IMG/VR virus record: IMGVR_UViG_3300032297_000671
Coordinates: 1 to 53,301 of that record
DNA: 53,301 nucleotides
DNA from: a virus
Taxonomy: Duplodnaviria; Caudoviricetes
Strand: one strand, 5' to 3'
The position numbers were made by a program, and so were the translations under genes. The notes beneath the pieces are model-generated. The model was not told where the DNA came from. It did not search any database and saw nothing but the letters and a program-made list of their open reading frames with translations. The stretch's first letter is position 1. The number at the start of each line of letters is the position of its first letter. Positions 5,700-38,926 of this stretch are shown here, one piece after another.

Positions 5700-5730
5700 G
5701 AAACTATCCTCGAGGTTTGGGGTAAGAATA
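5700..5730 (+). promoter_or_regulatory. putative ECF-like (middle) promoter GAAAC-N17-GTAAGAATA
   Basis: The same spacing recurs at 12853, 17339, 31886, 35992 and 38896. Confidence 0.7.
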
Positions 5731-5752
5731 CTAAGAAATATTTCTATAAACT

Positions 5753-6112
5753 ATGGCAAAAGAATATGTTAGAAATGCGGATTTAATGGCCGCTATCCTT
5801 GAATGTAAGGAAAAGGGCGAATTAACTCCGCGTACTATAAAGATGTTCACGCTTATGATAAACGGAATCTCTAAAAAAATGGCTTATAGAGATCCTGAAG
5901 ATAAGGAAGATTGCATGGCTTTTGCTATGGAGGACTTAGTAAAATATTGGAATAGATTTGATCCAACAAAATCTAATAACCCATTCTCGTACTATACACA
6001 AATTGCAAAGAATGGATTTGCGAAAGGATGGAAAAAAATACATCCACCAAAAGCACCAAAAACAATACCTTTTTCTTACATCACTGGTGAGGATAATTCG
6101 TACAACGTTTAA
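5753..6112 (+). CDS. gp55: T4 gp55-like sigma factor for late transcription
   Basis: YVRN..L and RFDPTKSNNPFSYYTQIAKNGF resemble the gp55 family signature (NFDP.KS.NPFAYFTQI); it sits next to head genes. Confidence 0.85.
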   Translation: MAKEYVRNADLMAAILECKEKGELTPRTIKMFTLMINGISKKMAYRDPEDKEDCMAFAMEDLVKYWNRFDPTKSNNPFSYYTQIAKNGFAKGWKKIHPPKAPKTIPFSYITGEDNSYNV

Positions 6113-6114
6113 GT

Positions 6115-6600
6115 ATGACAGATATCAAGAAAATAAAACCCAATGGGGATTATAAATCTGGACTCTATGTACCAAAAAACCCTGAAAAGTATATTGGTGA
6201 CGTCCATAATATAATTTGTAGATCCTCGTGGGAATTTAGATTCTGTAGATATTGTGATTCGAACGAGAGAATACTCAAATGGAGTTCAGAACCTTTAAAA
6301 ATTCCTTATTATAATCCGCTCGATAAGAAGGAGCATGTTTATAACGTTGATTTTTATATACAGGTTTTACAGGATGATGATAATAAGCAAGACTGGATAA
6401 TAGAGATAAAACCAGAATCACAATTTAAAAGACCCATCCTGGAAGGTAATGCTACTTTACAAAAGCTAAAATCATACAACCATAAAATGCAAGTCTGGAT
6501 TACTAACCAGGCAAAATTCAAATATGCTAAAGAATGGGCATCTGCGAGAGGATACAAATTTGGTGTGGTTGATGAAAATTTTCTATTTAAAAGCAAGTGA
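6115..6600 (+). CDS. gp4: head completion nuclease (T4 gp4-like, TnsA-type fold)
   Basis: Motifs PKNPEKYIGD, RSSWE, WSSE, IPY, H.Y.VDF, IEIKP and N.AK...A..W. Confidence 0.88.
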   Translation: MTDIKKIKPNGDYKSGLYVPKNPEKYIGDVHNIICRSSWEFRFCRYCDSNERILKWSSEPLKIPYYNPLDKKEHVYNVDFYIQVLQDDDNKQDWIIEIKPESQFKRPILEGNATLQKLKSYNHKMQVWITNQAKFKYAKEWASARGYKFGVVDENFLFKSK

Positions 6601-7199
6601 AAAACTTTGCTGAGCAAATAAAGGATTATCAGAACGGAGCTCAATCAATTAGTTCCCTGATACAGAAAACAAATTCTCTTTTTGAAGAAAAATATTTTTC
6701 ACCAAACGGAAAGGGTGAACCTTTAAGTGGTAATTATATACCAGGAAAAATATACACTGGAGAATATCTAACCAAGACAGATCTTTCCGATCGTATTAAA
6801 TTCATAGACAGAAGACCTGTATTTCTTTTTATTTCTGAGGAGAAAGTTAATGGTGAAAATATATTAAAAGGTCTTGATCTTAATATAGTTCCTAATGAAT
6901 ATAGAGCTAAAATTTTGGGATCCTATTTTGATAATTTTATAGGTAAGATTTCAGCGAATTTAAAAAATCCACCATCTTTACAGGAGCCTATATTGATAAA
7001 ATCGGTTTACCTTTCGTCCATCTTTGGTAATGATGGATATAAATTTGCTATGAATGGATTTAAAAAATCATATATGAAGTCTGTTAAAATCATATCTTAT
7101 GATGATTGGTCTAAAATACCTTTCTTAACAGATACACAAATACAAGGACTGACTGTTTCGGCGATATATAATCAATATAAGACGAAATTAAATGCTTGA
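6597..7199 (+). CDS. gp2: DNA end protector protein (T4 gp2-like)
   Basis: IPGKIY..Y, DRRP and GLDLNIVP...R resemble gp2 motifs (PG.MY.F.Y, D.FP, GLNLHYLP...R); adjacent to gp4. Confidence 0.6.
   Translation: MKNFAEQIKDYQNGAQSISSLIQKTNSLFEEKYFSPNGKGEPLSGNYIPGKIYTGEYLTKTDLSDRIKFIDRRPVFLFISEEKVNGENILKGLDLNIVPNEYRAKILGSYFDNFIGKISANLKNPPSLQEPILIKSVYLSSIFGNDGYKFAMNGFKKSYMKSVKIISYDDWSKIPFLTDTQIQGLTVSAIYNQYKTKLNA
7163..7170 (+). promoter_or_regulatory. putative late promoter for the portal genes
   Basis: GATATATA at the 3' end of the gp2-like gene, 63 nt before the portal ATG. Confidence 0.55.
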
Positions 7200-7233
7200 T
7201 TTGGTCTAAAGAAAGATATTGATGTATTAATAG

Positions 7234-8862
7234 ATGGCAGGATTCACAGATAACCCACAAGGAAATCCCATATTTCAAAGAATTAAGGATTCAGTAAAAT
7301 CCCTGAGTAATTTTGGATTAAGGTACGGTGATATGGTCATTAGGAACTCCCAGGCTATCGGTCAGACCGAAGCTGAGTTCATGAAGAAAGGTCCTATCGA
7401 AGATGATACAATGTTGTATTCACTAGGTAGACAAGATACAACAACAAAGCAATTTATTGGTTATTTTGATAAGGATTACGCAGGTAAGAGAGATTACCTT
7501 AGAAAGTTTTCACTAAATCCTGAAATCGAATATATTCTGGATACTGTTTGTGACGAGTCCATAACTTACGATTCCTATAATTTTTTTGCATACCCAGCTT
7601 TTCTTAATCTAACCAATATAAAAGAAAAGGTTATAAATAGAATTGACTCAAACTACAAGAAATTGTATGATATGTTTGGGTTTAGCGACGATAGCACTGC
7701 TTGGCAATATTTCAGGCAGCTTCTTGTTGACGGATTTATCGCATTTGAGATTATTTACGATGACAAGGGTAAAAATATCATAGGATTTAAAGAACTTGAT
7801 GCAACGACATTAATGCCATCTGTAGAAAAACAGAAGGATGGATCTTTTCTTAATGTTTGGTATCAATATCCTAAGGACATTAATAAGAAGAGAATGCTCT
7901 ATGATTCTCAGATAGTCTATATCTCATATGCTAAGGGAAATACAGTTTCCAGGGTTTCTTATGCTGAAAGATTGATTAGACCTTATAACATATTAAGAAT
8001 CATAGAGTATACCCGTGTTATATGGTCGGTAATGAACGCTTCATTCAGGATGAAGATGACAGTTCCTATCGGATCAAGATCACCTCAGAAGTCAATGCAA
8101 ACCTTAGGTGAATTGATGAGTATCTATAAAGAGGATATAAGATTTAATGACGATAGTGGAGAACTTACTGTAGACGGTAGACCGAAAATACAGTTCTACA
8201 AAAATTATCTTATGCCTTCAGGTGTAAATGGTACACCAACTATCGAGCCTTTAAACACTGCGGGTCCTAATCTTAATGATCCCGCTCCATTAGCATATTT
8301 CTTTGACAAATTAGCACAGGAATCAAAAATTCCTTTTTCTAGATTCCAAGGACCGGATGGAGGATCTATAGGTCAATATTCAAATTCTGCAGAAGGACTT
8401 GACAAGGAAGAAATCAGATTTGCAAAATTTGTAACGAGATTGAGATCTATATTTCAGGATATCCTTGTTAAGCCACTATGGATCCAGATGTGTAAGGATT
8501 TTCCGGAGCTTGAAAAGGATTATCTTTTTAAAAGTCAACTTGGATTAACTTTTGTTTCTGATAACCCATTTAGGGTAAATCAAGAAATAGAGACCATGAC
8601 AAAAAAGAAAGAGTCTATTGATAGTCTTTATGGGTTAACTGATGAAGATGGTAAGCCATTCTTTTCTTTAGCTTATCTTATAGAGAGCTATTTGGGTATG
8701 ACTGCTGATGATATTAAGGCTAATGAGGAGGCAAAGAAAAAAAGAAAAGAAGAATTAAAGAAGGAAGGTAAAAGTGAAGAAGCTGCTGCACCTGCTGAGG
8801 GATCTGCAGAACCTGCGGAACCTGCAGAAACACCCGAAACAGAAACACCTCCAGCTGAATAA
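7234..8862 (+). CDS. gp20: portal protein, paralog A (T4 gp20-like)
   Basis: PEIE..LD.VCDESI, FRQLLVDG, SYAERLIRPYNILRIIE...VIW, SKIPFSR and EEIRFAKFV.RLR..F are gp20 family motifs. Confidence 0.88.
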   Translation: MAGFTDNPQGNPIFQRIKDSVKSLSNFGLRYGDMVIRNSQAIGQTEAEFMKKGPIEDDTMLYSLGRQDTTTKQFIGYFDKDYAGKRDYLRKFSLNPEIEYILDTVCDESITYDSYNFFAYPAFLNLTNIKEKVINRIDSNYKKLYDMFGFSDDSTAWQYFRQLLVDGFIAFEIIYDDKGKNIIGFKELDATTLMPSVEKQKDGSFLNVWYQYPKDINKKRMLYDSQIVYISYAKGNTVSRVSYAERLIRPYNILRIIEYTRVIWSVMNASFRMKMTVPIGSRSPQKSMQTLGELMSIYKEDIRFNDDSGELTVDGRPKIQFYKNYLMPSGVNGTPTIEPLNTAGPNLNDPAPLAYFFDKLAQESKIPFSRFQGPDGGSIGQYSNSAEGLDKEEIRFAKFVTRLRSIFQDILVKPLWIQMCKDFPELEKDYLFKSQLGLTFVSDNPFRVNQEIETMTKKKESIDSLYGLTDEDGKPFFSLAYLIESYLGMTADDIKANEEAKKKRKEELKKEGKSEEAAAPAEGSAEPAEPAETPETETPPAE

Positions 8863-8873
8863 AATAAAACGAT

Positions 8874-10478
8874 ATGGCCGGATTTCTAGATAACGTAGCG
8901 GAAAGAACATTCTTAGGTAACCTGTACAAAAACCTATCCAGAATAGGTAAGTTTGGTATGGAGTACCAAGATATGGTTATTAAAAATTCACAGGCAATTG
9001 GTTCGACAGAATCTAATTTTTTTAATGAGCAAGGGAGCGGATTTACTGAGAATGATGCTTTTAGATGGACTCTTGGATATCAAGATACCCAAATTAGAAA
9101 ATACATTGCTTATTTTGATAAGGATTATGTAGGTAAGAGGGATTTTCTTCGAAAATTTTCCTTGAATGGTGAGATTGATTTTATTCTTGATACAATTACC
9201 GATGATTCTGTAAATTACGATGATAAGAATTTCTTTTCTTATCCATCACTAGCAAACATAGATCTTAAGAATAATGTTGTAGATAAGTTGGACGAAACGT
9301 ACAGGAATCTCTATATGCTTTTCGGTTTCCAGCAGAGTATTCTTGCCTGGCAATATTTTAGACAATTCCTGATAGACGGTTTTCTTGCATTTGAGATTGT
9401 ATATTCTACCGATGGTAAAAAAATTGTAGGTTTTAAAGAGCTCGATGCTACTTCACTTCAGCCAGCAACAGAAAAACAACCTAACGGTGAATTCCAGCAA
9501 ATTTGGATTCAATACCCGAATGATAATAAGATGACCAGAAGGTTAAAAGCTGAACAGATTATTTATATTTCTTATGCTAAGGGTAACACAGTCTCTAGAG
9601 TTAGCTATGTAGAAAGATTAATAAGATCATACAATATCCTACGTATAATGGAAAATACTAGGGTTATTTGGAATGTTATGAATGCCTCTTATCGTTTGAA
9701 ATTTGTCATCCCTGTTGGTAGTCAATCACAGCAGAAAGCAATGCAAACCCTTGGGCAGTTAATGTCTATCTACAAGGAGGAAATAGATCTGAATGATTTT
9801 TCCGGAGAATTAACAGTAAACGGTAGACCAAAGGTTCAATTTTATAAGAATTATTTGTTTCCTGAGAAAGATGGACAATCTCCAGATATTTCGACCCTGG
9901 ATCCTAATGGTCCGGATTTTAATGTGATGGAGAACGTTGTTTATTTCTATAATAAACTTAAACTAGATTCAAAAATACCTTATGCTAGATTTGCTTTTAG
10001 AGGGGGTACACCAGCAAATTATCAGATAGCCATAGATCAGCTTGAAAGGGATGAAATAAGATATGAGAAATTCTTAACTAGACTTAGATCAATCTTCCAA
10101 GAAATACTCGTTAAACCTCTTTATATTCAGATGTGTTTGGATTTTCCTGAATTATCAAAGGATAGATCATTTAAGGCTAATTTAGGTCTGGATTTTGTAA
10201 GAGAGAATTTGTTTGAAGAATTAATACAGCTTCAGAATTATACCAAGAGAAGCGATTTTATTACTGCTCTTGGAGGAATGAACCAGAAAATAGGAGAAGC
10301 TGAAACCCCTTACTTTGATAAAGAATTTCTAATAAAAAGATTCCTTGGTATTACTATGGATGAGTTTAGGAAGAATGAAAAGTATAAGGAAAACGAAGCT
10401 AAGGAAGCTAAAAAGGCTGAAAAAGAAGGTGGTGCTACTGAAGAAGGTGGCGGTGGTGGAGAAAGCTTTACTCTTTAA
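8874..10478 (+). CDS. gp20: portal protein, paralog B (T4 gp20-like)
   Basis: Colinear with paralog A throughout: YFDKDY.GKRD.LRKFSLN, FRQFLIDG, YISYAKGNTVSRVSY.ERLIR, SKIPYAR and DEIRYEKF..RLR. Confidence 0.88.
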   Translation: MAGFLDNVAERTFLGNLYKNLSRIGKFGMEYQDMVIKNSQAIGSTESNFFNEQGSGFTENDAFRWTLGYQDTQIRKYIAYFDKDYVGKRDFLRKFSLNGEIDFILDTITDDSVNYDDKNFFSYPSLANIDLKNNVVDKLDETYRNLYMLFGFQQSILAWQYFRQFLIDGFLAFEIVYSTDGKKIVGFKELDATSLQPATEKQPNGEFQQIWIQYPNDNKMTRRLKAEQIIYISYAKGNTVSRVSYVERLIRSYNILRIMENTRVIWNVMNASYRLKFVIPVGSQSQQKAMQTLGQLMSIYKEEIDLNDFSGELTVNGRPKVQFYKNYLFPEKDGQSPDISTLDPNGPDFNVMENVVYFYNKLKLDSKIPYARFAFRGGTPANYQIAIDQLERDEIRYEKFLTRLRSIFQEILVKPLYIQMCLDFPELSKDRSFKANLGLDFVRENLFEELIQLQNYTKRSDFITALGGMNQKIGEAETPYFDKEFLIKRFLGITMDEFRKNEKYKENEAKEAKKAEKEGGATEEGGGGGESFTL

Positions 10479-10490
10479 AACTAATATTCT

Positions 10491-12852: not shown

Positions 12853-12883
12853 GAAACTTCATGATTATTGTTCTCTAAAAAGA
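12853..12883 (+). promoter_or_regulatory. putative ECF-like promoter GAAAC-N17-CTAAAA
   Basis: Intergenic, upstream of the clamp loader, with the conserved 17-nt spacer. Confidence 0.55.
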
Positions 12884-12898: not shown

Positions 12899-13846
12899 AT
12901 GATTGATCAACTTCTAACTGAGAAGCTTCGCCCGAAAGAAATAAGGCACATGATTTTACCGAATAGAATTAGGGCTCTATTCGAAGATAAAGGACTAAAC
13001 CACAATGTACTTTTAGCTGGATCTCCTGGGTGTGGTAAAACCACATTAGCGAAGATCCTATCAAAAGGAATGCCCCACATATTTATAAACGTGTCTGATG
13101 AAAGTTCTGTAGAGACAATCCGTACTAAGATTAATGACTTCTGCTCAACTATTAGCATAATGGACGGTAAATCTTCTAAAAAGGTGGTCGTCCTGGATGA
13201 GTTCGATGGTGCATCGGATCAGTTTTATAAAGCACTCAGAGGAACTATTGAAAAATTTGCTGCAAATACAAGATTTGTAGCTACTTGTAACTGGCTTAAT
13301 AAAGTTCCGGAAGCAATTCAAAGTAGATTTGAGGTTATTAATTTCGATCCAGTAAATCAGGAAGAAGAGGATCAATTAAAAAACGAGTGGAAAGATCGGA
13401 TAAGATTGATACTAGGTAAACTTGGAATTTCCATAGACGATGAATCACTTAATGAATTTGAGAAGGAGTATTTCCCAGATTTGAGATCTTCTCTTAATAG
13501 AATACAATCATGGGTTATAGAGGGAACTAAAAGTATAGATGTTTCCAGAATAAAAGACTCTGCTTGGTCTTACGAAGAACTTTATAATCTGATTTTTGAT
13601 TCTAAGGATCCTGCTAAAAATTATCAAATTATAGTTGGTCAGTATTCATCCAAAGTAGATGATGTAATGGTAGCTATGGGAGAGGAATTTATTAATTGGG
13701 TTATCAAGAACAAATCAACATATGCTAAGATTATACCAGCGGTAGCTGTTTTGGTTGCTCAGCATCAGGCCCAGAGACAGGTTGTCATCGATCCGGTGGT
13801 AAGCTTGCTCTCCCTGATTTTCAGCATCCAGAAACTAATCGATTAG
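12899..13846 (+). CDS. gp44: clamp loader AAA+ subunit (T4 gp44/RFC-like)
   Basis: EKLRP, Walker A GSPGCGKTT, Walker B VVVLDEFD, SRF sensor and YFPDLR. Confidence 0.92.
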   Translation: MIDQLLTEKLRPKEIRHMILPNRIRALFEDKGLNHNVLLAGSPGCGKTTLAKILSKGMPHIFINVSDESSVETIRTKINDFCSTISIMDGKSSKKVVVLDEFDGASDQFYKALRGTIEKFAANTRFVATCNWLNKVPEAIQSRFEVINFDPVNQEEEDQLKNEWKDRIRLILGKLGISIDDESLNEFEKEYFPDLRSSLNRIQSWVIEGTKSIDVSRIKDSAWSYEELYNLIFDSKDPAKNYQIIVGQYSSKVDDVMVAMGEEFINWVIKNKSTYAKIIPAVAVLVAQHQAQRQVVIDPVVSLLSLIFSIQKLID

Positions 13847-13847
13847 C

Positions 13848-14192
13848 ATGAATAAGAATTTTATAGTTTTTTTGATTATAATAGCATTGTCCCAAGCTGG
13901 ATCGTGGATTCAGCAATTTGCTTTTATAAAATGGGACTGGTTTAAAAATAACATGATACTCTCTACTGTAATATTCGGTAGTTTGATATCTATTGGGTTC
14001 GTAATGGGAGCTAGAGTTGGATATGATATATGGGGAAATACTTGGAGTATTAGGTTAGTTCAGTTTTCAATTGGTATATTTGTTCTTACATTATGTTCTT
14101 GGTTATTTTTAGGTGAATCTATAGACTTGAAGAATGGAATATCACTTTCGCTTGCTTTTGCTATAGTTCTGTTACAGGTATTTTGGAAATGA
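13848..14192 (+). CDS. small 4-TM membrane protein (SMR/DMT-like size and topology)
   Basis: 114 aa with four hydrophobic helices and a WLFLGE motif before the last helix. Confidence 0.6.
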   Translation: MNKNFIVFLIIIALSQAGSWIQQFAFIKWDWFKNNMILSTVIFGSLISIGFVMGARVGYDIWGNTWSIRLVQFSIGIFVLTLCSWLFLGESIDLKNGISLSLAFAIVLLQVFWK

Positions 14193-14713
14193 TGAAAAGA
14201 ATAATTATAGTAGGTAAAGGTGGATCAGGTAAGGATCACCTTAGAAAAGAATTAGAAAAGTTAGGATTTAGATATTGTATCTCACATACAACACGTCCTC
14301 CTAGAGATGGTGAAATTAATGGTGTTGATTATCACTTTATATCTAGAGAATCAGCTGCATTTGAATTTGCTGCAAAGGGTAAATTCTACGAATATGTCAT
14401 ATTCAATGAATGGCTATACGGAACATCAGTTGAAGAATTCGAAAAAAGCAATCTCTTTATAATGACACCTTCGGGTCTTTCTAAAATGAAAGAATCAGAT
14501 AGAAAAGAATCGATTGTGATCTACCTTGATATAGATGAGAATGTGAGGAGGGATAGAATTTCTAAAAGAAATGATGCTGATAAAATAGAGAGAAGACTGG
14601 AGGCAGACAAGAATGATTTCTTGTCATTCACTGACTTTGATTATGTTATAACGGATCCTTTTTTCTCAGTAGGCGATCCGATTTTTGATTTAAATAGATA
14701 CACTCATGATTAA
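14189..14713 (+). CDS. gmk: guanylate kinase-like protein
   Basis: P-loop GKGGSGKD, SHTTRPPRDGEINGVDYHF and YGT. The ATGA overlap supports the start at 14189. Confidence 0.85.
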   Translation: MMKRIIIVGKGGSGKDHLRKELEKLGFRYCISHTTRPPRDGEINGVDYHFISRESAAFEFAAKGKFYEYVIFNEWLYGTSVEEFEKSNLFIMTPSGLSKMKESDRKESIVIYLDIDENVRRDRISKRNDADKIERRLEADKNDFLSFTDFDYVITDPFFSVGDPIFDLNRYTHD

Positions 14714-15839
14714 CGTTTTAATAGACGGAAACTATATTTTCCACAAAACTTTTGGTGTTTTTGGTGGATATGGATCTAAAGATCCTGGAGAGATCCTAAA
14801 AACTGCGGGAGAGCAGTCAATGTTTATAAGAAAAATAACTACAGATCTTTGCTCTGCTTTAAGGTCTCTTCCTATTGGAGGAAGATTAATTTTTACTGTT
14901 GATAGCAGAAGTTGGAGGAAGGATGTTGAAATTGAAGGTGGAGGATATAAATCAAATAGGGTTAAAGACGAGAATGTTGATTGGAGCGTATTTTTCGATT
15001 TATTGCAAGCTTACGGTGAGCATTTAGAAAACATGGGATTTGTGTTTTCTAAAGTTGATGGTGCAGAGGGTGATGATCTTCTTTATTTTTGGTCAGATTA
15101 TTTCAATACGAAGGGAGAGGATTGTATAATAATATCTGGTGATAAAGACATGTACCAGCTTGCTAGATGGAAGGGACCAAATTGGACTGTTGTTTGGAAT
15201 AGTAATTCTAAGAATAATATTCTTTCTGTTCCTCAATCTTGGGAATCTGATTGGTTGAACAAATCGGGGGAGGCAACTATTTTTAACATATCAGAATCGA
15301 TGGATCCTGACAAGGATAGATTTAAAGATTTCGTTAAAAAGATAGACGTCCAGGAAATAAATCCAAGGGATTTTGTTTTTGTTAAGATGTTGATAGGTGA
15401 TAAAGGAGATGCCGTTCCCGGTATTTGGGAAATGAAGGTCGGGGAAAAAACAAATAATTTAACTCCAAAAAAAGCTGAAAATATCCTTGCATCTCTACAA
15501 GAATCTAAATGGAAAGATTCAGAATTCAAAGATTTGATATCTGATTCTGAATTTTTAGATTGGATATCAGGAATGACCCTTAGAATAATGAAGGATGTTG
15601 ATAGCCAAGAAAACAGAGAGAAGGTTTCTTCCAATCTGCTGAGAAATTATAAGTTAATGTGGCTTGATAAGTATGTCATACCAAGGGAAGTTATAGAAAA
15701 GACTATATTGGAATTAAAAAGAGGAATATCTTTGCCTAGAAAATCTATAACACTTGATAGAGTAAAAATCCTTGACGGAACTAACTGGATTGTAACTCAG
15801 TCAGCACCTAAAAGCTTTGACCCATTTAACAACTTCTGA
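14706..15839 (+). CDS. rnh: 5'-3' exonuclease / T4 RNase H (FEN-like)
   Basis: Motifs LIDGN, D..SWRK, YK.NR, EGDD, ISGDKD..QL and GDKGD.VP. Confidence 0.88.
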   Translation: MINVLIDGNYIFHKTFGVFGGYGSKDPGEILKTAGEQSMFIRKITTDLCSALRSLPIGGRLIFTVDSRSWRKDVEIEGGGYKSNRVKDENVDWSVFFDLLQAYGEHLENMGFVFSKVDGAEGDDLLYFWSDYFNTKGEDCIIISGDKDMYQLARWKGPNWTVVWNSNSKNNILSVPQSWESDWLNKSGEATIFNISESMDPDKDRFKDFVKKIDVQEINPRDFVFVKMLIGDKGDAVPGIWEMKVGEKTNNLTPKKAENILASLQESKWKDSEFKDLISDSEFLDWISGMTLRIMKDVDSQENREKVSSNLLRNYKLMWLDKYVIPREVIEKTILELKRGISLPRKSITLDRVKILDGTNWIVTQSAPKSFDPFNNF

Positions 15840-16267: not shown

Positions 16268-16275
16268 GATATATA
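16268..16275 (+). promoter_or_regulatory. putative late promoter GATATATA
   Basis: Intergenic copy of the recurrent motif. Confidence 0.65.
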
Positions 16276-17338: not shown

Positions 17339-17369
17339 GAAACTTTAATCTTTTTTTACTGTAAAAGAA
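17339..17369 (+). promoter_or_regulatory. putative ECF-like promoter GAAAC-N17-GTAAAAG
   Basis: Intergenic, with the conserved spacing. Confidence 0.65.
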
Positions 17370-17372
17370 CTG

Positions 17373-18251
17373 ATGATCTTAAGTAAGAACACAGGTAATC
17401 TTGGTTGCGTAAATAAAAATTTTGGCAGGTCTATAACTTCCTGTTATGATTTCGTGCAGATGGTTTTGAATGAATCTATTGACGCTAATTCTAAATCAAT
17501 AAAATTGTCTTGTTTTGAGATTGGACAGGATTTTAATTTTCCTGACTTTTCTTCCATCGAGGAAGAAGATAAAGTGATGGATCTGATATGGGATCTTTCT
17601 AATTTAATTAGAACTAATTCACATAGGATATTTTTCTTTCTCCCTGGATATTATTTTTTGGGAAGTCAAATGCCAGATGTTGTTGAAAAAACTAGGGAAA
17701 CTGTTCTATCAATTTCTGTTTTTCTTGAAATGATAGGAGTTAGATCAACGTCGATTATATTAAGAGTTGGATCTGCTTATGGTGCTAGAAAAGCAACAAT
17801 GGAAAGATTTAACTCTGAGATTAATTCATTTTTACCTGGAGTTAAAAAATTAATCGCGGTTACGAACGACGAAAAACCTAGTCTTTTTTCGGTAACAGAT
17901 CTTTTGTCCGGTGTTTATTATCAAACCAAAATTCCTATATGTTTTAGATTCCTAGCTCATACCTTCAATAACGGTGGGCTTACATATAAGGAAGCACTAT
18001 TTCTTTCCTGCTCAACGTGGAAAGAAGGTGAAGTTCCAATTTTCATATATTCTGAATCTGACGAAATAGATGAGTTCGGGGCTTTTGTATCGCCAAAGAC
18101 AGCATTAAAGCTAAATCATAGAATCCCAACATTCGGCCTAGAGACAGACGTAATTATAGACTCTGAAAGATCTAAAGAAACCTGTATTAAGTATATGACT
18201 GAAAGAAGCTCATTGAGACCTATAGTCATCAACAAAATGTCTAAGAAATAA
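17373..18251 (+). CDS. uvsE: UV-damage endonuclease (UvsE/UvdE)-like protein, apparently lacking metal ligands
   Basis: VG.AYG.RK.TM.RF, NDEKPSLFSV.DL, IPI.F and TW....P...YSES are recognisable, but the expected His/Asp/Glu ligands are substituted. Confidence 0.7.
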   Translation: MILSKNTGNLGCVNKNFGRSITSCYDFVQMVLNESIDANSKSIKLSCFEIGQDFNFPDFSSIEEEDKVMDLIWDLSNLIRTNSHRIFFFLPGYYFLGSQMPDVVEKTRETVLSISVFLEMIGVRSTSIILRVGSAYGARKATMERFNSEINSFLPGVKKLIAVTNDEKPSLFSVTDLLSGVYYQTKIPICFRFLAHTFNNGGLTYKEALFLSCSTWKEGEVPIFIYSESDEIDEFGAFVSPKTALKLNHRIPTFGLETDVIIDSERSKETCIKYMTERSSLRPIVINKMSKK

Positions 18252-18275
18252 TTTTTTTATAGCGTTCTTTTTGGG

Positions 18276-18283
18276 TATTTTTG
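18276..18283 (+). promoter_or_regulatory. possible Bacteroidota-type housekeeping -7 element (TAnnTTTG)
   Basis: TATTTTTG in the intergenic region, 15 nt before ATG 18299. It is the only clear instance seen. Confidence 0.4.
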
Positions 18284-19836: not shown

Positions 19837-19874
19837 AGGATTATTTGGATATATAAACCAAATAATCCTTTTTT
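19837..19874 (+). terminator. terminator-like hairpin enclosing a late promoter
   Basis: AGGATTATTTGG-ATATATAAA-CCAAATAATCCT-TTTTT. GATATATA at 19848-19855 spans the loop, and the hairpin abuts GTG 19875. Confidence 0.75.
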
Positions 19875-20666
19875 GTGAATACTGTTTTAGATTTTTCGTC
19901 ATATTTTCTTACTGAAGCAAAGATAGGCTCATTTTATAATGATGAGCTAAATCCTAAATTTTGGGATAAGTATACATCAAAAGACGGTAAGGTAAAATGG
20001 GTATTCGATCCTTTGGTTCGAAAGAAGCTTCTTAAAATAGCTGACGATTTCTATTCTAAGTTCGGGGATCTACTTGGAGATCTTCCTATATCTGATATCC
20101 AATTAACAGGATCTCTTGCTAACTACAATTATACGGATCAATCTGATTTGGATGTCCACGTTTTGGTTGATTTCAGCAAGATAAGTAACGATAAAAAAAC
20201 TTTAAAGGCTGCTATAGATGGTATCAGATTCATGTGGAATCTGAGACATGATGTTATAATAAGAGGCCATGATGTTGAGCTATATCTGCAGGATATCAAA
20301 GAACCTCACACAGCATCTGGATTATATTCACTTCAAGATAATAAATGGATCAGAGTTCCTAAATTCGATCCACCAGAAATTGATGAGCAAGATGTGAAGA
20401 AAAAATTCGAATCTATAGTTTCCGAAATCTCGAATTTAGAATCAAAGCTTGTACTTGTTCCAGAATTACCATCGGAAGCGAAAGATCTTTATAAGAGATT
20501 AAATAGGATCAAGGAAAAGGCTCAAAAAATGAGGAAAGAAGATCTAGGATCAAAGGGTGAATTCTCTGTTGGTAATCTCGTCTTTAAAAAGCTCAGAAAC
20601 GAGGGATATATAGCTAAACTGATAGATCTCATATCTAAGTCTTACTCAAGGATTTATTCAGAATAA
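19875..20666 (+). CDS. Pol-beta-superfamily nucleotidyltransferase
   Basis: DIQLTGSLANYNY...SDLDVHV carries the GS and DxD motifs, and DVELYLQD supplies the third acidic residue. The N-terminus MNTVLDFSSYFLTEA is CTS-like. Confidence 0.85.
   Translation: MNTVLDFSSYFLTEAKIGSFYNDELNPKFWDKYTSKDGKVKWVFDPLVRKKLLKIADDFYSKFGDLLGDLPISDIQLTGSLANYNYTDQSDLDVHVLVDFSKISNDKKTLKAAIDGIRFMWNLRHDVIIRGHDVELYLQDIKEPHTASGLYSLQDNKWIRVPKFDPPEIDEQDVKKKFESIVSEISNLESKLVLVPELPSEAKDLYKRLNRIKEKAQKMRKEDLGSKGEFSVGNLVFKKLRNEGYIAKLIDLISKSYSRIYSE
20605..20612 (+). promoter_or_regulatory. possible late promoter for 20680
   Basis: GATATATA 67 nt before ATG 20680, inside the 3' end of the upstream gene. Confidence 0.45.
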
Positions 20667-20679
20667 AAAATTTAAAAAG

Positions 20680-23350: not shown

Positions 23351-23358
23351 GATATATA
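23351..23358 (+). promoter_or_regulatory. putative late promoter GATATATA
   Basis: Intergenic, 25 nt before the protease ATG. Confidence 0.72.
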
Positions 23359-27137: not shown

Positions 27138-27167
27138 AAACCCCAGGTTTCGGCCTGGGGTTTTTTT
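27138..27167 (+). terminator. intrinsic terminator after the capsid gene
   Basis: AAACCCCAGGT-TTCG-GCCTGGGGTTTTTTT, with a UUCG tetraloop. Confidence 0.93.
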
Positions 27168-27176: not shown

Positions 27177-27184
27177 GATATATA
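27177..27184 (+). promoter_or_regulatory. putative late promoter GATATATA
   Basis: Immediately after the terminator and 22 nt before ATG 27207. Confidence 0.72.
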
Positions 27185-31885: not shown

Positions 31886-31915
31886 GAAACCTGATTAAAT
31901 GTTTTCAATAGAATC
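31886..31915 (+). promoter_or_regulatory. putative ECF-like promoter GAAAC-N17-ATAGAAT
   Basis: Intergenic, with the conserved spacing. Confidence 0.55.
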
Positions 31916-31920
31916 CATGG

Positions 31921-32844
31921 ATGAATAATTCTGGATTATATCTTTTGAGTTTTTGTAGTAAAGGAAGTCCATGGGATTTGGGAAGGGACCTTTCTGCTAA
32001 TTCTGAAATGATCAGATTGATCCTGTCTCCCTATTTTAATGAAATTTACATATACTCTCCTGAGGATATAAAAACAATGGGAGGGACAGATTTTTGTAAT
32101 CAACGTCCCGGCGAATTTCCTCTTAATCCTGGAATAAATGATCTAGGATGTGGTGACTTCAAACCATTCCTGATAGATCATACACTTAAGATGATTCCAG
32201 AGGGATCTATTTTAATATACCATGATTGTAATTTTTCTAAGTATCCACAATATTGGCAAACAGATTGGAAAAATCTATATGAGACTTGTTCAAGTTTACT
32301 TGAGATAAACAAGTCCGATATTTTTATGCCATTTGAAACCCCAATTAGGCCAACTAAAGGTATTCAGCCAAAAGTAAGAATGCACGGAAAGAGGCACACC
32401 ACACTTTCTATAATAAAAGATCCGATAGAGGCAGAGATAGTTTCTGAATGTTATGAGATCGCTTCTGGAAGAATGGTAATAAGGAATTCGAATTTCTCCA
32501 GAGACTTCTTTTCTGAGTACCTTCGGCTTTGTTCAATTCCAGAATTAATAGAAAAATATCCAAATCCAAATCCATATCCACAATTTACTCATCACTGTCC
32601 AGAACAACATATATTAAATTGTTTAATTTATAAGTATATTTTGGATGGAAAATTAGATCCCCTTTTTCCAAGATTTATGTTTCCTATGAGAAGACTGTTG
32701 ATTGATGACGATGTAAAATCTTTCGTAAATCACAAATTGACGAAATATCTTTCTGAAAAATCAATACAAATATTACAAAAAGAGGATTATGATAACGATT
32801 TTCGAGGGACAAAGGAATTCGGGGAAGACATTTTTAGCACATAA
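31921..32844 (+). CDS. putative glycosyltransferase-like (GT-A fold) protein
   Basis: FKPFLI..TL....EGSILIYHDC and H..EQ.IL resemble the KPY.I...L...GD.L.Y.D / HR.DQS.L pattern of GT-like proteins. Confidence 0.5.
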   Translation: MNNSGLYLLSFCSKGSPWDLGRDLSANSEMIRLILSPYFNEIYIYSPEDIKTMGGTDFCNQRPGEFPLNPGINDLGCGDFKPFLIDHTLKMIPEGSILIYHDCNFSKYPQYWQTDWKNLYETCSSLLEINKSDIFMPFETPIRPTKGIQPKVRMHGKRHTTLSIIKDPIEAEIVSECYEIASGRMVIRNSNFSRDFFSEYLRLCSIPELIEKYPNPNPYPQFTHHCPEQHILNCLIYKYILDGKLDPLFPRFMFPMRRLLIDDDVKSFVNHKLTKYLSEKSIQILQKEDYDNDFRGTKEFGEDIFST

Positions 32845-33331
32845 GTTTGCTTCAATCTCAGATTTACCTATATTTAAATTTGAATTTGTCGATTGGTTCA
32901 AAAATTTAGAATTAGTAGATTCCCAAGAATCTACCCATTTATTTGCATTAGGAAAAGAGTCTATGCTAATGCAATTGAATAGAGATGGTCTTTTACCTGA
33001 TTTCATTCTCGATAGAGGTATTTTAACAGTTATGACCTGGGGAATACTTTCAGGAAGAATAACTGAATCCAAGGCACATGAGCAACTTTCCATGATTTGT
33101 GAAGCAGGTCTTTTCGATAACATTAGGATATTCTATGTGGTTGGTGAAAATCCAGACCGGTCTAGTAGGAATAAGGATGTTTGGGACTTTAGAGAATCCG
33201 ATAATAGAGAATCTGAGATCATGGAAAATCTAAGAGATCATATTTCTAATAATCCATATAACGTGCAGGTTGAGTACATTTTTAATGAATTCAACGAAGA
33301 TTCTGTACGATCTCTACATAAATTTATATAA
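32789..33331 (+). CDS. P-loop nucleoside monophosphate kinase (thymidylate kinase-like)
   Basis: IFEGQRNSGKT P-loop and ILDRG motif. Confidence 0.7.
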   Translation: MITIFEGQRNSGKTFLAHKFASISDLPIFKFEFVDWFKNLELVDSQESTHLFALGKESMLMQLNRDGLLPDFILDRGILTVMTWGILSGRITESKAHEQLSMICEAGLFDNIRIFYVVGENPDRSSRNKDVWDFRESDNRESEIMENLRDHISNNPYNVQVEYIFNEFNEDSVRSLHKFI

Positions 33332-33332
33332 A

Positions 33333-34730
33333 ATGTGCGGTATACTAATAACTAAAGAAATCTCGGACAGAGTAATCGATTCGATTAAACATAGAGGAAT
33401 TGAAAAAACAATTGTTAGTAAGGGATTGTTTAATCTTTGTCATCACAGACTTCCTATCCAAACCTCAGATGGCGATGATTGGAACCAGCCAAAGGAGATA
33501 AGTCCTGGGATCTTCCTCTTGTTCAATGGAGAGATATTTAATTACGATAGAAATAGGTATTCATCAGACATCGAGTATCTCTGTAGTTTATTTTCTAACT
33601 ATCGTGGTGGAAACTTCGATTTATTTTGTGCTTTCTATCTTTCTCAGATACAAACATGGGATGGATTTTGGGCTATAGTTTTATATGATGCTAATCTTAA
33701 TGAGGCTATTGCTTTTACAGATCCTTTAGGAAAGAAGTCTTTGTATTTCAATAATATTGGTGAGATCTGTTCTGAGATAAAGGGAGTAGTTAGTGATAAT
33801 TCCCCGATTGATGAAATCTTTATGAGCTCAGTTAGAAAATGGGGATATAATACAGACGAGAGAACTCCATATACGGATGTCAAGAGAATTTTACCAAATG
33901 ACATCTACCATTTGAATCTAGATAACGTAGAAATTAGAAAGATCTATAAAGAATATTACAAGGGATTCGATTCCCCAATAACTGAATTAATAGGTGCTTC
34001 CTACGAGGATCACATGGAGTGGTTATGGAGCAAAATGTTTGAGTCAGTTAAGAATAGACTTGTATCAAAAAACTACCCAATTTCTTTGCTAATTTCTGGT
34101 GGACTTGATTCCTCTATCATAGCTTCTATATTAAAAGAAATTGGTGCTGACGTCAGGTGGTTTAGTATAGAGAATGGTGAAAGGGAATATGTTGAATTGC
34201 TTTCTGAGTACTTATCAACTAACGTAACATTCCTTGACTATTCGATGGAGGATGATAAGAATGACGAGATATACAAAAAATGGAACGAGTCCCCAATTGA
34301 TCTCGGATCAGCTATTCCTCAGTATTACTTATTTGAAGCTATTAAAAAATTCGGAGGATATCGTATAGTTTTAAGTGGTGATGGATCTGACGAACTCTTT
34401 GGAGGATACAGAAGGATCCACGAATACGATTCACAGAAATCTGATATCTTCGAGGAGCTTTCTTATTATCACTTGCCTAGACTTGATAAGATGTCAATGG
34501 CACATACTTTAGAATTGAGAAGCCCATTCCTTAATCTTGATCTTGTTAGATTTGCTCTACATTTACCTAAGGAATGGAGAACAGATAAAAAAATTCTAAA
34601 GGACACCTTTGCACCGATATTACCCGAGGAAATAGTCAATAGAAAAAAAGAAGCTCTAAAGAATCCTCAGATAAAAGAAGATAAAATAAAGTATCGATAT
34701 AAGGTAATTGACAGATTTATTAAGCAGTAG
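33333..34730 (+). CDS. asnB: asparagine synthetase (glutamine-hydrolysing)-like amidotransferase
   Basis: The true start is MCGI at 33333 (Ntn cysteine). Other motifs: HRG, HHRL.I, FNGEIFNY, SGGLDSS, LSGDGSDELFGGY and DKMSMAHTLELRSPFL. Confidence 0.88.
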   Translation: MCGILITKEISDRVIDSIKHRGIEKTIVSKGLFNLCHHRLPIQTSDGDDWNQPKEISPGIFLLFNGEIFNYDRNRYSSDIEYLCSLFSNYRGGNFDLFCAFYLSQIQTWDGFWAIVLYDANLNEAIAFTDPLGKKSLYFNNIGEICSEIKGVVSDNSPIDEIFMSSVRKWGYNTDERTPYTDVKRILPNDIYHLNLDNVEIRKIYKEYYKGFDSPITELIGASYEDHMEWLWSKMFESVKNRLVSKNYPISLLISGGLDSSIIASILKEIGADVRWFSIENGEREYVELLSEYLSTNVTFLDYSMEDDKNDEIYKKWNESPIDLGSAIPQYYLFEAIKKFGGYRIVLSGDGSDELFGGYRRIHEYDSQKSDIFEELSYYHLPRLDKMSMAHTLELRSPFLNLDLVRFALHLPKEWRTDKKILKDTFAPILPEEIVNRKKEALKNPQIKEDKIKYRYKVIDRFIKQ

Positions 34731-34749
34731 CAATTTACTTATTGGAAAG

Positions 34750-34757
34750 GATATATA
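34750..34757 (+). promoter_or_regulatory. putative late promoter GATATATA inside a 7-bp inverted repeat
   Basis: TGGAAAG-GATATATAGAAAAAAA-CTTTCCA (34743-34772), ending 3 nt before ATG 34776. Confidence 0.68.
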
Positions 34758-34775
34758 GAAAAAAACTTTCCATCA

Positions 34776-35480: not shown

Positions 35481-35491
35481 AAAACAAAATT

Positions 35492-35857: not shown

Positions 35858-35858
35858 T

Positions 35859-35993
35859 ATGGCAAAAGCTAGAAAAGAGGGTAAGCCAAAGAGAAATAGG
35901 ACAAACCTACTAAAGAATATAAAGAGGATGAGAAAGAATAACATCTTTCTATCTAGAATAAAAGAAGAAATGAAAAAGGAAGGACAAGTTTGA
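35859..35993 (+). CDS. small very basic protein (44 aa)
   Basis: The ATG lies just after the upstream TAA; sequence MAKARKEGKPKRNRTNLLKNIKRMRKNN... Confidence 0.55.
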   Translation: MAKARKEGKPKRNRTNLLKNIKRMRKNNIFLSRIKEEMKKEGQV

Positions 35994-36008
35994 AACTTGT
36001 CCTTTTTT
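35980..36008 (+). terminator. intrinsic terminator overlapping an ECF-like promoter
   Basis: AAGGACAAGT-TTGAA-ACTTGTCCTT-TTTT. Confidence 0.75.
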
Positions 36009-36022
36009 GTGCTGTAAGAATA
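35992..36022 (+). promoter_or_regulatory. putative ECF-like promoter GAAAC-N17-GTAAGAATA
   Basis: Both boxes and the spacer length are identical to the promoter at 5700. Confidence 0.72.
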
Positions 36023-36036
36023 GTAAACGCCTTAGT

Positions 36037-36705: not shown

Positions 36706-37431
36706 CTATTCATTTTCAGTAGCACCTTGACTCATCTCTCTCATAAACAATTCTTTCGCTATCTTGGTTATGACTGAATTATTGTTGAAATCCTCCGATA
36801 TTTCCATTACTGTTACCCTAGGCTGAGTTTTATTATCAATTTTAAGGTAATCTATGACTTCGTGGATAATAAACTCGTACGACAAAGAAAAATAGCAATT
36901 TAGCATCGGAACCTGCTTCATAATTATGCTTTTCTCTCCGACATTCGTTTTACCAGATTGCCACCAATATGGTATTATTTCATCAGTTGCCATATTTCTT
37001 AATATCAATATACCATAATCATTACTTCTAGAGTATTCACTTGTTACTTCGAAGGTTCTTATCCTATTTTCGATATTTTTCCATAGATCCATTCCAAGAT
37101 CGGCATATTTATATAGTATATCTAGAGATGAATCCAGTATGGACAATGCCTCGTTCGATTCGTCTTCAGATAGATTACATTCTTTTATTATATCTAGCAA
37201 CTCTCTTGTCGATTGTGTTAGATATTTAGATGGGATAATATCTTTTTCCTCTAGAAGACATTTTACGTGGGATAGCTCTTTAATCATTGAAAATATTTTT
37301 TTAACCGGATAGTAAATATTTTCTTTCTCAATTTCTTTATTAACACTTTTTAAAAAGTCCAATAGGATATACTGCTTATGCTCCAGGTCTATTGGATGCT
37401 GTATAAACCATGTTTTCTTGAGATTTTTCAT
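36706..37431 (-). CDS. hypothetical protein (only credible minus-strand gene)
   Basis: It fills the gap between + strand genes. The likely start MKNLKKTWF has an A-rich leader and an AATATATA element (37456-37463, minus strand). Confidence 0.75.
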   Translation of the reverse strand: MKNLKKTWFIQHPIDLEHKQYILLDFLKSVNKEIEKENIYYPVKKIFSMIKELSHVKCLLEEKDIIPSKYLTQSTRELLDIIKECNLSEDESNEALSILDSSLDILYKYADLGMDLWKNIENRIRTFEVTSEYSRSNDYGILILRNMATDEIIPYWWQSGKTNVGEKSIIMKQVPMLNCYFSLSYEFIIHEVIDYLKIDNKTQPRVTVMEISEDFNNNSVITKIAKELFMREMSQGATENE

Positions 37432-37513
37432 GGTGTTGAATTTTTTTATATGTCTTATATATTGAACTAATATTTTTTCATTCGAGACTAAAAAAGAAGC
37501 TGATCTTAGTTTT

Positions 37514-37521
37514 GATATATA
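37514..37521 (+). promoter_or_regulatory. putative late promoter GATATATA (divergent from the minus-strand element)
   Basis: 26 nt before ATG 37548. Confidence 0.68.
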
Positions 37522-37547
37522 ATACATAAAAATAGTGTACAAGAAAA

Positions 37548-37985
37548 ATGCCAAGAATATCCGATTATTCTAGTTTCAATTCACAAAAATCAAAGAAGAT
37601 CTCTAGCGAGCATATATTTACTCAGAATTTAGATTTTCTTGACATAGAATTAGTAAATAGACCCCCTGAATTAGCAGACGTTGACTCTGCTGAATGTGAA
37701 ATAGAATATGAGGTTGGAATAGACAGAGTTAAATCAGGTATCGTTGATTTGGCTTTTTCTGTTTCTAATATAGAAATTGATCTTGGTGTAGATGACTACC
37801 CAAATGAACAGAAGGATTTCGAATTTGATATAGTCCCTGGTGAGAATATAGACCACACCTCGGTTTTTTGTAGAAAGATGGAAAGATTAATTCCTTGTGC
37901 ACCTTCTAAGATTAGGATCGATATGAAAAAATCGATGAATACTCAGGATTTTAAAATTGAAGTATTTTTTGGAGATGGCGAATAA
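37548..37985 (+). CDS. acidic hypothetical protein, putative head-internal
   Basis: CTS-like N-terminus RISDYSSF. Confidence 0.6.
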   Translation: MPRISDYSSFNSQKSKKISSEHIFTQNLDFLDIELVNRPPELADVDSAECEIEYEVGIDRVKSGIVDLAFSVSNIEIDLGVDDYPNEQKDFEFDIVPGENIDHTSVFCRKMERLIPCAPSKIRIDMKKSMNTQDFKIEVFFGDGE

Positions 37986-38889
37986 TAGGGCTTTAAATTT
38001 TTCTTCTTTTAATAAAATAAATGAATCTAGCACATTCTCTAAAAAAAATCTGGGTATTTTAGGACCCTTTGAGGATGGTGAAATGAAAATCAGGATAAAT
38101 CCTGATAATGGGTTTTCCGTTAAGGATTCAGTGGATAACATTACTCTATCCTTCGGAGATCATTCTATTGATATTCCTTCAAGATGCTGCAAGATTGATG
38201 ACGATAGAATTATTCTTAAAACCAAGATGAATTGGTTTGATGATAATGAGAATATGGAGAATTTATATTCTATGGTAGAGGATTACATTTCACAGAAAAA
38301 TGATTATTCTGTTTCAGATGACGATAAAATCATGGACGACGTTGCTATGCTATGTGATATACTTGGCATTGATGTTATAGATCCTAGTATTAGTAAAACC
38401 TCTAAGAATGATTACGAGTGCTCGATAGGAAATGATCGTGAGGTTGAAATATCTAAATCTGACTCTAATGATTTATTTAAAAATTTTAGAATGTATAAGA
38501 ATCAGGAGTCTATACATCCGGATCTTCATATAAAGAAAAAATCTGGTGATTTTTCTTGCAAATATCGAACAGATAAGGGGGTTTTCGATACATCACACGA
38601 TAATTTTAAAGATATACTTAGAAGTCCTATAGATGCTTATCTTATAAACGTTTGCTTAGAAAAAGATGACAACAAGGATAGTGAAAGGGTACTTGTTGAT
38701 CATTTAATGAAGATCCTTAAGTATCACGATTGGAAATTGCCAGAATCAGAAACATCCTCACCTGAAAAACACAAGAAGGAATCTGCTGAGATCAAAAAGA
38801 TAATGAATATTCTTTCTAATACTATCCCAGAAGAACACATTGAAGAGATGTATACTGATGCAAGACAGAGATTTCTGAAGACGCAGTAA
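37975..38889 (+). CDS. hypothetical protein, putative head-internal
   Basis: Start MANNRALNFSSFNKINES is CTS-like and includes an INE site. Confidence 0.6.
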   Translation: MANNRALNFSSFNKINESSTFSKKNLGILGPFEDGEMKIRINPDNGFSVKDSVDNITLSFGDHSIDIPSRCCKIDDDRIILKTKMNWFDDNENMENLYSMVEDYISQKNDYSVSDDDKIMDDVAMLCDILGIDVIDPSISKTSKNDYECSIGNDREVEISKSDSNDLFKNFRMYKNQESIHPDLHIKKKSGDFSCKYRTDKGVFDTSHDNFKDILRSPIDAYLINVCLEKDDNKDSERVLVDHLMKILKYHDWKLPESETSSPEKHKKESAEIKKIMNILSNTIPEEHIEEMYTDARQRFLKTQ

Positions 38890-38895
38890 TTTTTT

Positions 38896-38926
38896 GGAAC
38901 ATAAACCCATATTTTCAGTATAAATA
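38896..38926 (+). promoter_or_regulatory. putative ECF-like promoter GGAAC-N17-GTATAAATA
   Basis: Conserved spacing; overlapped by the inverted repeat CAGTATA/TATACTG. Confidence 0.5.

Follow-up and report, generated by a model that had tools for sequence, protein, structure and literature searches.

The subject of this analysis is a 53,301-nucleotide (nt) stretch of viral DNA (hereafter the window), which makes up the whole of IMG/VR record IMGVR_UViG_3300032297_000671, and within it a set of putative promoters, here called class 2, that precede replication and repair genes and the gene for a late sigma factor resembling gp55 of phage T4. The 53.3-kb contig has a G+C content of 35%, and nearly all of its genes lie on the + strand. 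It carries a T4-type gene set comprising a gp23-type major capsid protein, two gp20-type portal paralogs, a prohead protease, a clamp loader, an ATP-dependent DNA ligase, and the gp55-like late sigma of 119 amino acids (aa). The capsid protein is 40–46% identical to those of the Prevotella Lak megaphages and of the 462-kb uncultured phage LR756500.1, and about 32% identical to those of Flavobacterium and Tenacibaculum phages; IMG/VR holds many relatives of the window, on contigs of up to 349 kb. The T4-type genes, the capsid similarity, and the large relatives therefore lead us to conclude, from sequence comparison, that the window is part of the genome of a T4/Lak-like jumbo phage. The Mahaphage clade, which includes Lak, has been predicted to infect Bacteroidetes (PMC7162821). 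Five relative records (G001 to G005) were used throughout, of which G001 and G002 are complete and the other three are fragments; the closest, G005, is collinear with the window over its positions 22292–65446.

A preliminary description of this DNA listed six sites of the form G(A/G)AAC-N17-nTA, at 5700, 12853, 17339, 31886, 35992, and 38896, and all six are real: each lies on the + strand with a spacer of exactly 17 nt (Table 1). In the consensus that they and their counterparts in relatives give, 16–17 nt separate the −35 box G(A/G)AAC, frequently with a T after it, from the −10 box nTA(t/a)AA(t/a); the −10 nonamer is identical at the 35992 and gp55 sites. Wherever a function can be named, the genes behind these sites are non-structural, as the same description had claimed: clamp loader, guanylate kinase, exonuclease, UvdE, AsnB-like, and NUDIX. 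The clamp-loader operon is tightly packed, with gaps of −10 to +1 nt between genes, and the 31921–34730 stretch consists of two open reading frames (ORFs) of no known family followed by the AsnB-like gene. In G001, the class-2 genes include a UvsX-like recombinase, a methyltransferase, two glycosyltransferases, a clamp loader, and a SET-domain protein. Not all of the original annotation survived: the labels AsnB-like, UvdE-like, clamp-loader, and gp55-like are backed by Pfam or PHROG, those of "GT" and "kinase" (for the genes at 31921, 32789, and 36037) have no Pfam or PHROG support, and the gene behind the 35992 site, formerly placed at 36007, starts instead at ATG 36037.

The gene behind the first site deserves separate mention, as it is the one that would link class 2 to late transcription. 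Its product scores 23.1 bits on Pfam Sigma70_r2, just below the 24-bit cut-off; the PHROG profile match, the small size, and the restriction to region 2 together identify it, at the level of sequence, as a T4 gp55-type late sigma.

Taken over the whole window on both strands, the loose pattern GRAAC-N17-NTA is not enriched, with 18 occurrences against 15.62 ± 4.15 and 31 of 100 shuffles reaching 18. Within the 80 nt upstream of genes, read in gene orientation, it precedes 5 of the 50 window genes against 0.56 in dinucleotide-preserving shuffles (0/300), and a stricter form ending in NTA[ATG]AA precedes 4 genes in the same regions against 0.06 (0/300 shuffles). When the gap in GRAAC-N{k}-TA[ATG]AA was varied from 10 to 26 over the upstream-100 regions of the window, k = 18 (that is, N17 plus the n) gave 5 matches and every other value 0–2. 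An unbiased count of 5-mer/gap/4-mer words across 116 upstream regions of the window and G005 likewise ranks GAAAC-N18-TAAA first, at 6 against 0.68 for other gaps. Upstream enrichment recurs in G005 (5 against 0.12; 0/300 shuffles) and in three genomes that contributed nothing to the original pattern, namely G001 (15 of 428 genes, against 0.83; 0/300 shuffles), G002 (16 of 376 genes, against 0.77; 0/150 shuffles), and LR756500.1 (16 of 664 genes, against 1.29), and there is a single spacing peak in each case, which falls at k = 17 for LR756500.1 and at k = 18 for G001, G002, G005, and the window. The motif stands on the coding strand only, 9–80 nt before start codons, and all six strict matches in G005 fall within the 5% of that record that is non-coding.

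A position weight matrix (PWM) built from G001 and G002 only recovers four of the six window sites, with the 38896 site scoring highest in the window (23.8), plus a possible seventh at 8842; it misses 5700 and 35992, both of which have the −10 box TAAGAAT. The 8842 site lies at the end of portal paralog A, mostly in coding sequence, with its −10 T 9 nt before portal paralog B. A scan of the window for E. coli-type promoters (43 found, 54 expected) is uninformative. In LR756500.1 the class is very clean, reading GAAAC(a/t)-N16-TATAAT at the 17 sites listed, with a spacing one base shorter.

The sites are also kept at orthologous junctions. Scored as G[AG]AA[CT]-N16/17-nTA[ATG][AG]A in the orthologous upstream regions, the pattern is present before gp55 in 4/4 relatives, the clamp loader in 7/7, UvdE in 4/4, and the genes corresponding to those at 31921, 36037, and 38996 in 20/21, 24/26, and 47/48. 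Because several of these loci are near-duplicates, the numbers of unique N17 sites (window included) are smaller: 5 for gp55, 6 for the clamp loader, 4 for UvdE, and 15, 9, and 25 for the three others. Spacers and flanks at these junctions are 31–63% identical, the exception being the hairpin spacer before gene 36037. At the gp55 junction the site reads GAAAC-N17-(C/A)TAAAA in L001, L002, L005, and G004, and GAAAT-N17-(C/G)TAGAA in G001–G003; G005 likewise has a class-2 site ahead of gp55. The clamp-loader sites have variable spacers, and one is found even before the clamp loader of the distant genome G001; the UvdE sites of the four relatives are all GAAAC-N17-CTAAAA; those before gene 31921 are mostly GAAACtta-N14-CTATAAT; and in those before gene 36037, G(A/G)AAC stands 16 or 17 nt ahead of either nTATAAA or nTAAGAAT. 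Class 2 thus combines the fixed spacing, the excess upstream of genes, and the boxes conserved at orthologous junctions that are the sequence marks of a bipartite sigma promoter, and we treat its members as predicted promoters of that kind.

Start codons at two of these junctions lie close to the predicted promoter. The UvdE-like and 31921 genes (17362–17375 and 31909–31923) begin 11–12 nt past the −10 T, in relatives too; for the UvdE-like gene the ATG is 11 nt past the T of the TA in the 17339 site. If transcription starts at the usual distance, the two mRNAs would be leaderless or nearly so, and that of the UvdE-like gene probably is. Orthologs of gene 38996 (L015–L028, L044) have a leader of about 75 nt after the promoter, with a conserved stretch, aatgctgtccggtgaattgtt, in several; the leader in the window differs. 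The conserved stretch may be an element of the 5′ untranslated region.

Could class-2 sites be some other junction signal, such as part of a terminator, a site of RNA processing, or one to which a replication or packaging protein binds? The idea draws on two of the six. At 35992, the GAAAC lies within the loop and 3′ arm of an intrinsic terminator hairpin; 24 of 26 relatives have this hairpin too, with stem changes that compensate one another and never break the GTTT..(G)AAAC pairing. We read 35976–36022 as a compact terminator–promoter module. In addition, the spacer of the gp55 promoter (5705–5721) contains a near-palindrome, CCTCGAGG, with AACCTCGAGGTT in relatives; it is conserved in L001, L002, G004, and G005, in which respect the other class-2 spacers differ, and it could serve as an operator, subjecting the late sigma to one more layer of control. 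Against a general role of this sort, five of the six sites show no RNA structure (at 5700 the fold is not significant, z 0.07), which rules out the hairpin explanation for those five. The motif, moreover, is bipartite at a sigma-type spacing and keeps its orientation and distance to starts, and both boxes are conserved while the spacer drifts. A non-promoter junction signal is on these grounds highly improbable.

Class 2 is one of three promoter classes. The second to be considered here is the late class, for which the exact word GATATATA occurs 13 times on the + strand and 0 times on the − strand, mostly 21–75 nt before structural genes. The two classes had been described as mutually exclusive, and that holds, as no GATATATA falls between a class-2 site and its gene. 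The third class, absent from the earlier list, consists of a T-run, a CG, and the box TAnnTTTG; in the window it precedes the Fpg/Nei-like gene, and in relatives it also precedes the ligase gene, whose own site in the window (upstream of 11502) is a degenerate copy of this class. The same layout stands before the ECF (extracytoplasmic function) sigma operon and the RpoD-like sigma genes of relatives, both described below. In G001 and G002, the consensus extends to approximately TTTTTaTCCCGt-N9-CTTATnnTTTG, the strongest spaced word there in an unbiased search. In flavobacteria the primary sigma, sigma A, has TAnnTTTG as its −7 box (PMC9723704); this match therefore fixes the host phylum and identifies the third class as early and read by the host.

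What, then, reads class 2? The gp55-like protein consists of region 2 only, so a −35 box at a fixed distance requires another factor, one with sigma domain 4; having no domain to read that box, the gp55-like protein is ruled out as the class-2 reader. The window holds no full sigma gene. One check proposed in the preliminary description was to search the remainder of the genome for an ECF/sigma-70 gene, and as far as this could be carried out the answer is positive, with the gene found in relatives and not in the record itself. An exact 32-mer from the start of the window had no match among metagenome contigs, so no longer contig of this phage was obtained, and a protein-based scan of those contigs with the first ORF of the window gave no relative.

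Each of G001–G005 has an ORF of 202–210 aa carrying Sigma70_r2. The G005 protein, of 206 aa, scores 50.2 bits on Sigma70_r2 and 43.4 bits on r4_2, has no r3, and reaches 73.0 bits on TIGR02937 (sigma70-ECF) against a cut-off of 42.9, a second relative scoring 64.6. By domain content, size, and TIGR02937 score, the 206-aa protein of relatives (L061:1426-2046) is a predicted ECF-type (group 4) sigma. No ECF subfamily or equivalog cut-off was reached (59–68 bits on the SigW equivalogs against the 209–243 called for), and with scores so far below the SigW cut-offs the phage sigma is not a SigW ortholog. Among solved structures, the sigma profile matches B. subtilis SigW best (5wuq, E 8.3e-12). The best phage matches in GenBank are proteins of Lak and other huge phages at 23–30% identity, and the nearest cellular homologues, at ≤33%, are too distant to lend a known promoter motif. 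Among the five relatives, regions 2 and 4 are invariant in proteins 63–70% identical overall, which fits a conserved promoter specificity.

The sigma gene is the middle member of a trio, dCMP deaminase, ECF sigma, and a membrane protein of 144–155 aa, found in all nine relatives that cover the region (including L157, L158, L203, and L204). In G005 it occupies approximately 20287–20907 and ends about 1.4 kb before the point matching base 1 of the window; given the collinearity of the two, the sigma operon is expected about 1.4–2 kb before that base. A host-type TAnnTTTG promoter precedes the operon in 5/5 relatives and in L157. The ortholog of the window's truncated first ORF is itself preceded by GAAAC-N16-CTAAAAAA (G005, ~22170–22215; L157, ~3430–3480), and base 1 of the window probably lies a short way into a class-2 transcription unit.

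A co-transcribed cognate anti-sigma is common, though not universal, among ECF sigmas. The membrane protein that follows the sigma has no Pfam or NCBIfam match, and a complex prediction for the pair scored 0.00, which is evidence neither for nor against an anti-sigma. A class-2 site is present inside the 3′ end of the ECF sigma gene, pointing at the membrane protein gene, in L065 and L063 (G001 and G003) and, with 16 nt, in G002; the closest relatives, G005 and G004, have none there. The membrane protein gene may thus be under the control of the sigma itself in some members, to judge from this placement.

Taking these observations together, we favor, at a probability of roughly 0.6, a relay in which class-2 sites are read by a phage ECF sigma. 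Host sigma A would read the T-run/CG/TAnnTTTG promoters, and the ECF sigma would thereby be made; this sigma, of about 206 aa and ECF-type (group 4), would act on the host core RNA polymerase at class-2 promoters, whose −35 box G(A/G)AAC(t) is of the AAC type; class 2 would in turn switch on replication, repair, and modification genes along with the gp55-like late sigma, which would then read the GATATATA promoters of the structural genes. A host-type promoter before the sigma and a class-2 site before gp55, in the window and seven relatives, give the order that a cascade needs. Both the assignment of class 2 to this sigma and to no other factor and the temporal order of the steps are what we infer from the promoter and gene arrangement. 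The preliminary description had proposed that an ECF-type sigma drives middle transcription and switches on the late sigma, and the sigma gene in relatives and the class-2 site before gp55 support that proposal without proving it.

Other readers of class 2 have to be weighed against this one. The complete genomes G001 and G002 also encode an RpoD/RpoS-like sigma of 300–304 aa with regions 1.2, 2, 3, and 4 (L060:1342-2256; L059), whose genes likewise lie behind a host-type early promoter, and it might be this group 1–3 type sigma that reads class 2, with the ECF sigma serving another gene set. TATAAT is the box read by a housekeeping-type region 2, and the class-2 −10 box is near TATAAT in G001, G002, and LR756500.1 and so might be read by the RpoD-like protein. 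Its region 4.2, however, keeps by eye the ERIRQI motif of TTG-reading sigmas and not an AAC type, and a region 4.2 of that kind argues against the RpoD-like sigma at GAAAC. It was found, furthermore, in only two of the five relative records, a weak point given that the other three are fragments. We consider this reading unlikely.

A phage activator bound at GAAAC could instead replace the −35 contact while host sigma A reads the −10 TA, as an analogue of the sigma appropriation by MotA/AsiA on which the T4 middle class depends (PMC2988021). Class 2 does share the leading TA of the host TAnnTTTG box, but lacks its TTTG half, and a hexamer-like box, 17 nt, and a −10 box form the geometry of direct recognition by sigma regions 4 and 2. 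The Pfam families AsiA and MotA_activ had no match in G001, G002, or G005, an argument of little weight since the control genomes gave none either. Appropriation of this type is, in our estimate, quite unlikely.

The preliminary description had also left room for a hijacked host factor, in which a host ECF sigma activated by the stress of infection would read class-2 sites. Bacteroidota have several ECF sigmas (7 in F. psychrophilum, according to parts of PMC9723704), and AAC-type −35 boxes are common among ECF sigmas (PMC5758882). The phage lineage, however, has an ECF-type sigma of its own, a conserved gene with an early promoter and with cellular homologues no closer than the identity given above, and the Flavobacterium ECF motif has CGT in its −10 region (PMC9723704). 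Of the two sources first proposed, a phage-encoded sigma is accordingly favored over a hijacked one, which appears very unlikely.

Several observations weigh against reading class 2 as the target of the phage ECF sigma, beyond the RpoD-like proteins and TATAAT-like boxes just described. The absence of window-wide enrichment of the loose pattern is one that had been named beforehand as counting against it. The class-2 −10 box is TA-rich (TATAAT- or TAAAA-like) and lacks the CGT of B. subtilis and Flavobacterium ECF sigmas, and the sigma operon has a host-type promoter, so that the factor is not autoregulated, unlike many ECF sigmas. Conservation has gaps: the gp55 relative L007 has no site at the junction, its sole match being in the upstream coding end; LR756500.1 has the class, with no site directly before gp55; the class-2 spacing peak was not seen in Lak-C1; and in phage PTm1 the signal is weak (3 against 0.60, a count reached by 6 of 150 shuffles). 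That the window's own phage carries the ECF sigma gene is suggested by collinearity and by the 9/9 relatives, the gene itself lying beyond the window.

Table 1. Predicted promoters, terminator, and associated genes of the window, numbered from its first letter.
Feature	Position	Strand	Remarks
Class-2 promoter (predicted), GAAAC-N17-GTAAGAATA	5700..5730	+	before gp55-like late sigma gene
gp55-like late sigma, 119 aa, region 2 only	5753..6112	+	phrog_234 "late sigma transcription factor", E 1.3e-14
Possible seventh class-2 site, GAAAC-N17-ATAAAACGA	8842..8872	+	weak; PWM score 9.3
Class-2 promoter (predicted), GAAAC-N17-CTAAAAAGA	12853..12883	+	before clamp-loader operon
Operon: clamp loader, 114-aa ORF, guanylate kinase, 5′-3′ exonuclease	12899..15839	+	PHROG/Pfam; behind 12853 site
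Class-2 promoter (predicted), GAAAC-N17-GTAAAAGAA	17339..17369	+	before UvdE-like endonuclease gene
UvdE-like UV endonuclease gene	17373..18251	+	PF03851, E 1.7e-10
Class-2 promoter (predicted), GAAAC-N17-ATAGAATCC	31886..31916	+	before 31921-34730
Class-2 promoter (predicted), GAAAC-N17-GTAAGAATA	35992..36022	+	overlaps terminator 35976-36008
Intrinsic terminator, hairpin and T-run	35976..36008	+	-17.1 kcal/mol, z -4.55, 0/200 shuffles as stable
Gene behind 35992 site, 222 aa	36037..36705	+	no family found; start at ATG 36037
Class-2 promoter (predicted), GGAAC-N17-GTATAAATA	38896..38926	+	77 nt before 38996 gene
Genes behind 38896 site: 216-aa ORF, then NUDIX-domain protein	38996..40214	+	
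Host-type (early) promoter: T-run, CG, TATTTTTG (TAnnTTTG)	18245..18283	+	before Fpg/Nei-like gene
Late promoter GATATATA	507..514	+	24 nt before start at 531
Late promoter GATATATA	2875..2882	+	31 nt before start at 2906
Late promoter GATATATA	7163..7170	+	before portal genes; kept in relatives
Late promoter GATATATA	16268..16275	+	
Late promoter GATATATA	19848..19855	+	kept in relatives
Late promoter GATATATA	20605..20612	+	
Late promoter GATATATA	23351..23358	+	before prohead protease and major capsid protein genes
Late promoter GATATATA	27177..27184	+	just past terminator 27138-27163
Late promoter GATATATA	34750..34757	+	
Late promoter GATATATA	37514..37521	+	
Late promoter GATATATA	50690..50697	+	

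Some further features of the window and its relatives are recorded here. The tandem T4-type portal (gp20) paralogs, at 7234–8862 and 8874–10478, are 53% identical over 505 residues, and both are also kept in G005. The sole long ORF on the minus strand, 36706–37554 (282 aa), occupies the space that separates two + strand genes, and neither Pfam nor PHROG gives a match for it. A search of Rfam at gathering thresholds gave 0 matches in the window. Among the relatives, the 70-kb contig L157 sits in a metagenome-assembled genome labelled Saprospirales and carries the sigma trio, with a sigma that is 87% identical; its DNA is about 72% identical to that of G005 over 2.6 kb. L157 probably comes from a phage and was binned together with its host; the Saprospirales label is a weak hint as to that host.

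The proposed relay invites comparison with several known systems. In phage SPO1, host sigma A serves the early genes, gp28 the middle genes, and gp33/34 the late genes. The scheme proposed here has the same logic, with early genes under the host sigma followed by phage sigma-70-family factors acting in sequence on the host core, and one motif per class (for SPO1, see PMC13401047). Unlike SPO1, the present lineage has a T4-like virion and late system (gp23, gp20, gp55-like sigma, clamp loader), a putative middle sigma that is of standard ECF type by profile, and a Bacteroidota host with TAnnTTTG promoters.

In T4, middle transcription proceeds by MotA/AsiA appropriation of sigma 70, with a MotA box near −30, and late transcription through gp55/gp33/gp45 at the motif TATAAATA. 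Shared with T4 are the T4-like genes themselves, the gp55-like late sigma, a −10-only TATA-rich late motif (GATATATA here), and a middle class that serves replication and repair genes. Class-2 sites differ in carrying GAAAC and not a MotA box, and they do not qualify as MotA-type sites; a further difference is that the gp55 gene itself stands here behind a predicted middle-class promoter.

The supply of an ECF-family sigma to host RNA polymerase by a lytic phage has a precedent in gp36 of phiEco32 (Kuravirus; PMC7881722). phiEco32 is an enterobacterial podovirus with one phage sigma, whereas here an ECF middle tier would stand above a gp55-type sigma in a jumbo, myovirus-like phage. Among cellular factors, SigW promoters are spaced TGAAAC-N16-CGTA, which puts the TA in the same register as in GAAAC-N17-GTA. 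In the SigW class the −35 box is tGAAACnTTTt (PMC5758882), which resembles the GAAACtt of phage class-2 sites. Unlike SigW promoters, the phage sites show no conservation of a CG ahead of the TA, and their TA extends into TAtAAt or TAAAA.

A survey of jumbo phages assigns to all members of its group 2, including Lak and PTm1, minimal and RpoD-like sigmas, gp33, and dependence on the host core polymerase (Iyer et al. 2021, PMC7824862). In the text of that survey "ECF" occurs 0 times, and the passages available contain no promoter motifs or cascade order. Our literature search, over a limited set of papers, found no description of such a relay. Phage sigma cascades (SPO1), a phage ECF-like sigma (phiEco32), the gp55 late system (T4), and jumbo-phage sigma genes are thus already known; what would be new is their joining in a T4-like Bacteroidota jumbo phage, where an ECF-type sigma forms the middle tier over gp55 and is accompanied by a promoter code conserved in many uncultured genomes.

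Whether the picture extends to the lineage at large is, in our judgment, about evenly balanced. On this broader view, jumbo and mega-phages of aquatic Bacteroidota that form a widespread, uncultured clade would use a three-sigma relay in which an ECF sigma replaces MotA/AsiA and reads a hybrid GAAAC/TAtAAt promoter, with the −35 box sometimes placed within the 3′ arm of a terminator and with the membrane protein driven from such a promoter in some members.

Bacteroidota jumbo and mega-phages are known almost solely from metagenomes, and none of this lineage has been cultured. A three-class promoter code would allow their unknown genes to be sorted into early, middle, and late by sequence only, and it predicts which phage protein reprograms the host polymerase; the small sigma and its promoters are parts that could be tested in Flavobacterium or in vitro. 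If the relay is true, phage evolution would offer a case in which an ECF-type sigma, and not MotA/AsiA, stands over a late system of T4 type (gp55), and sigma biology would gain an ECF-type sigma that works with a TATAAT-like −10 box.

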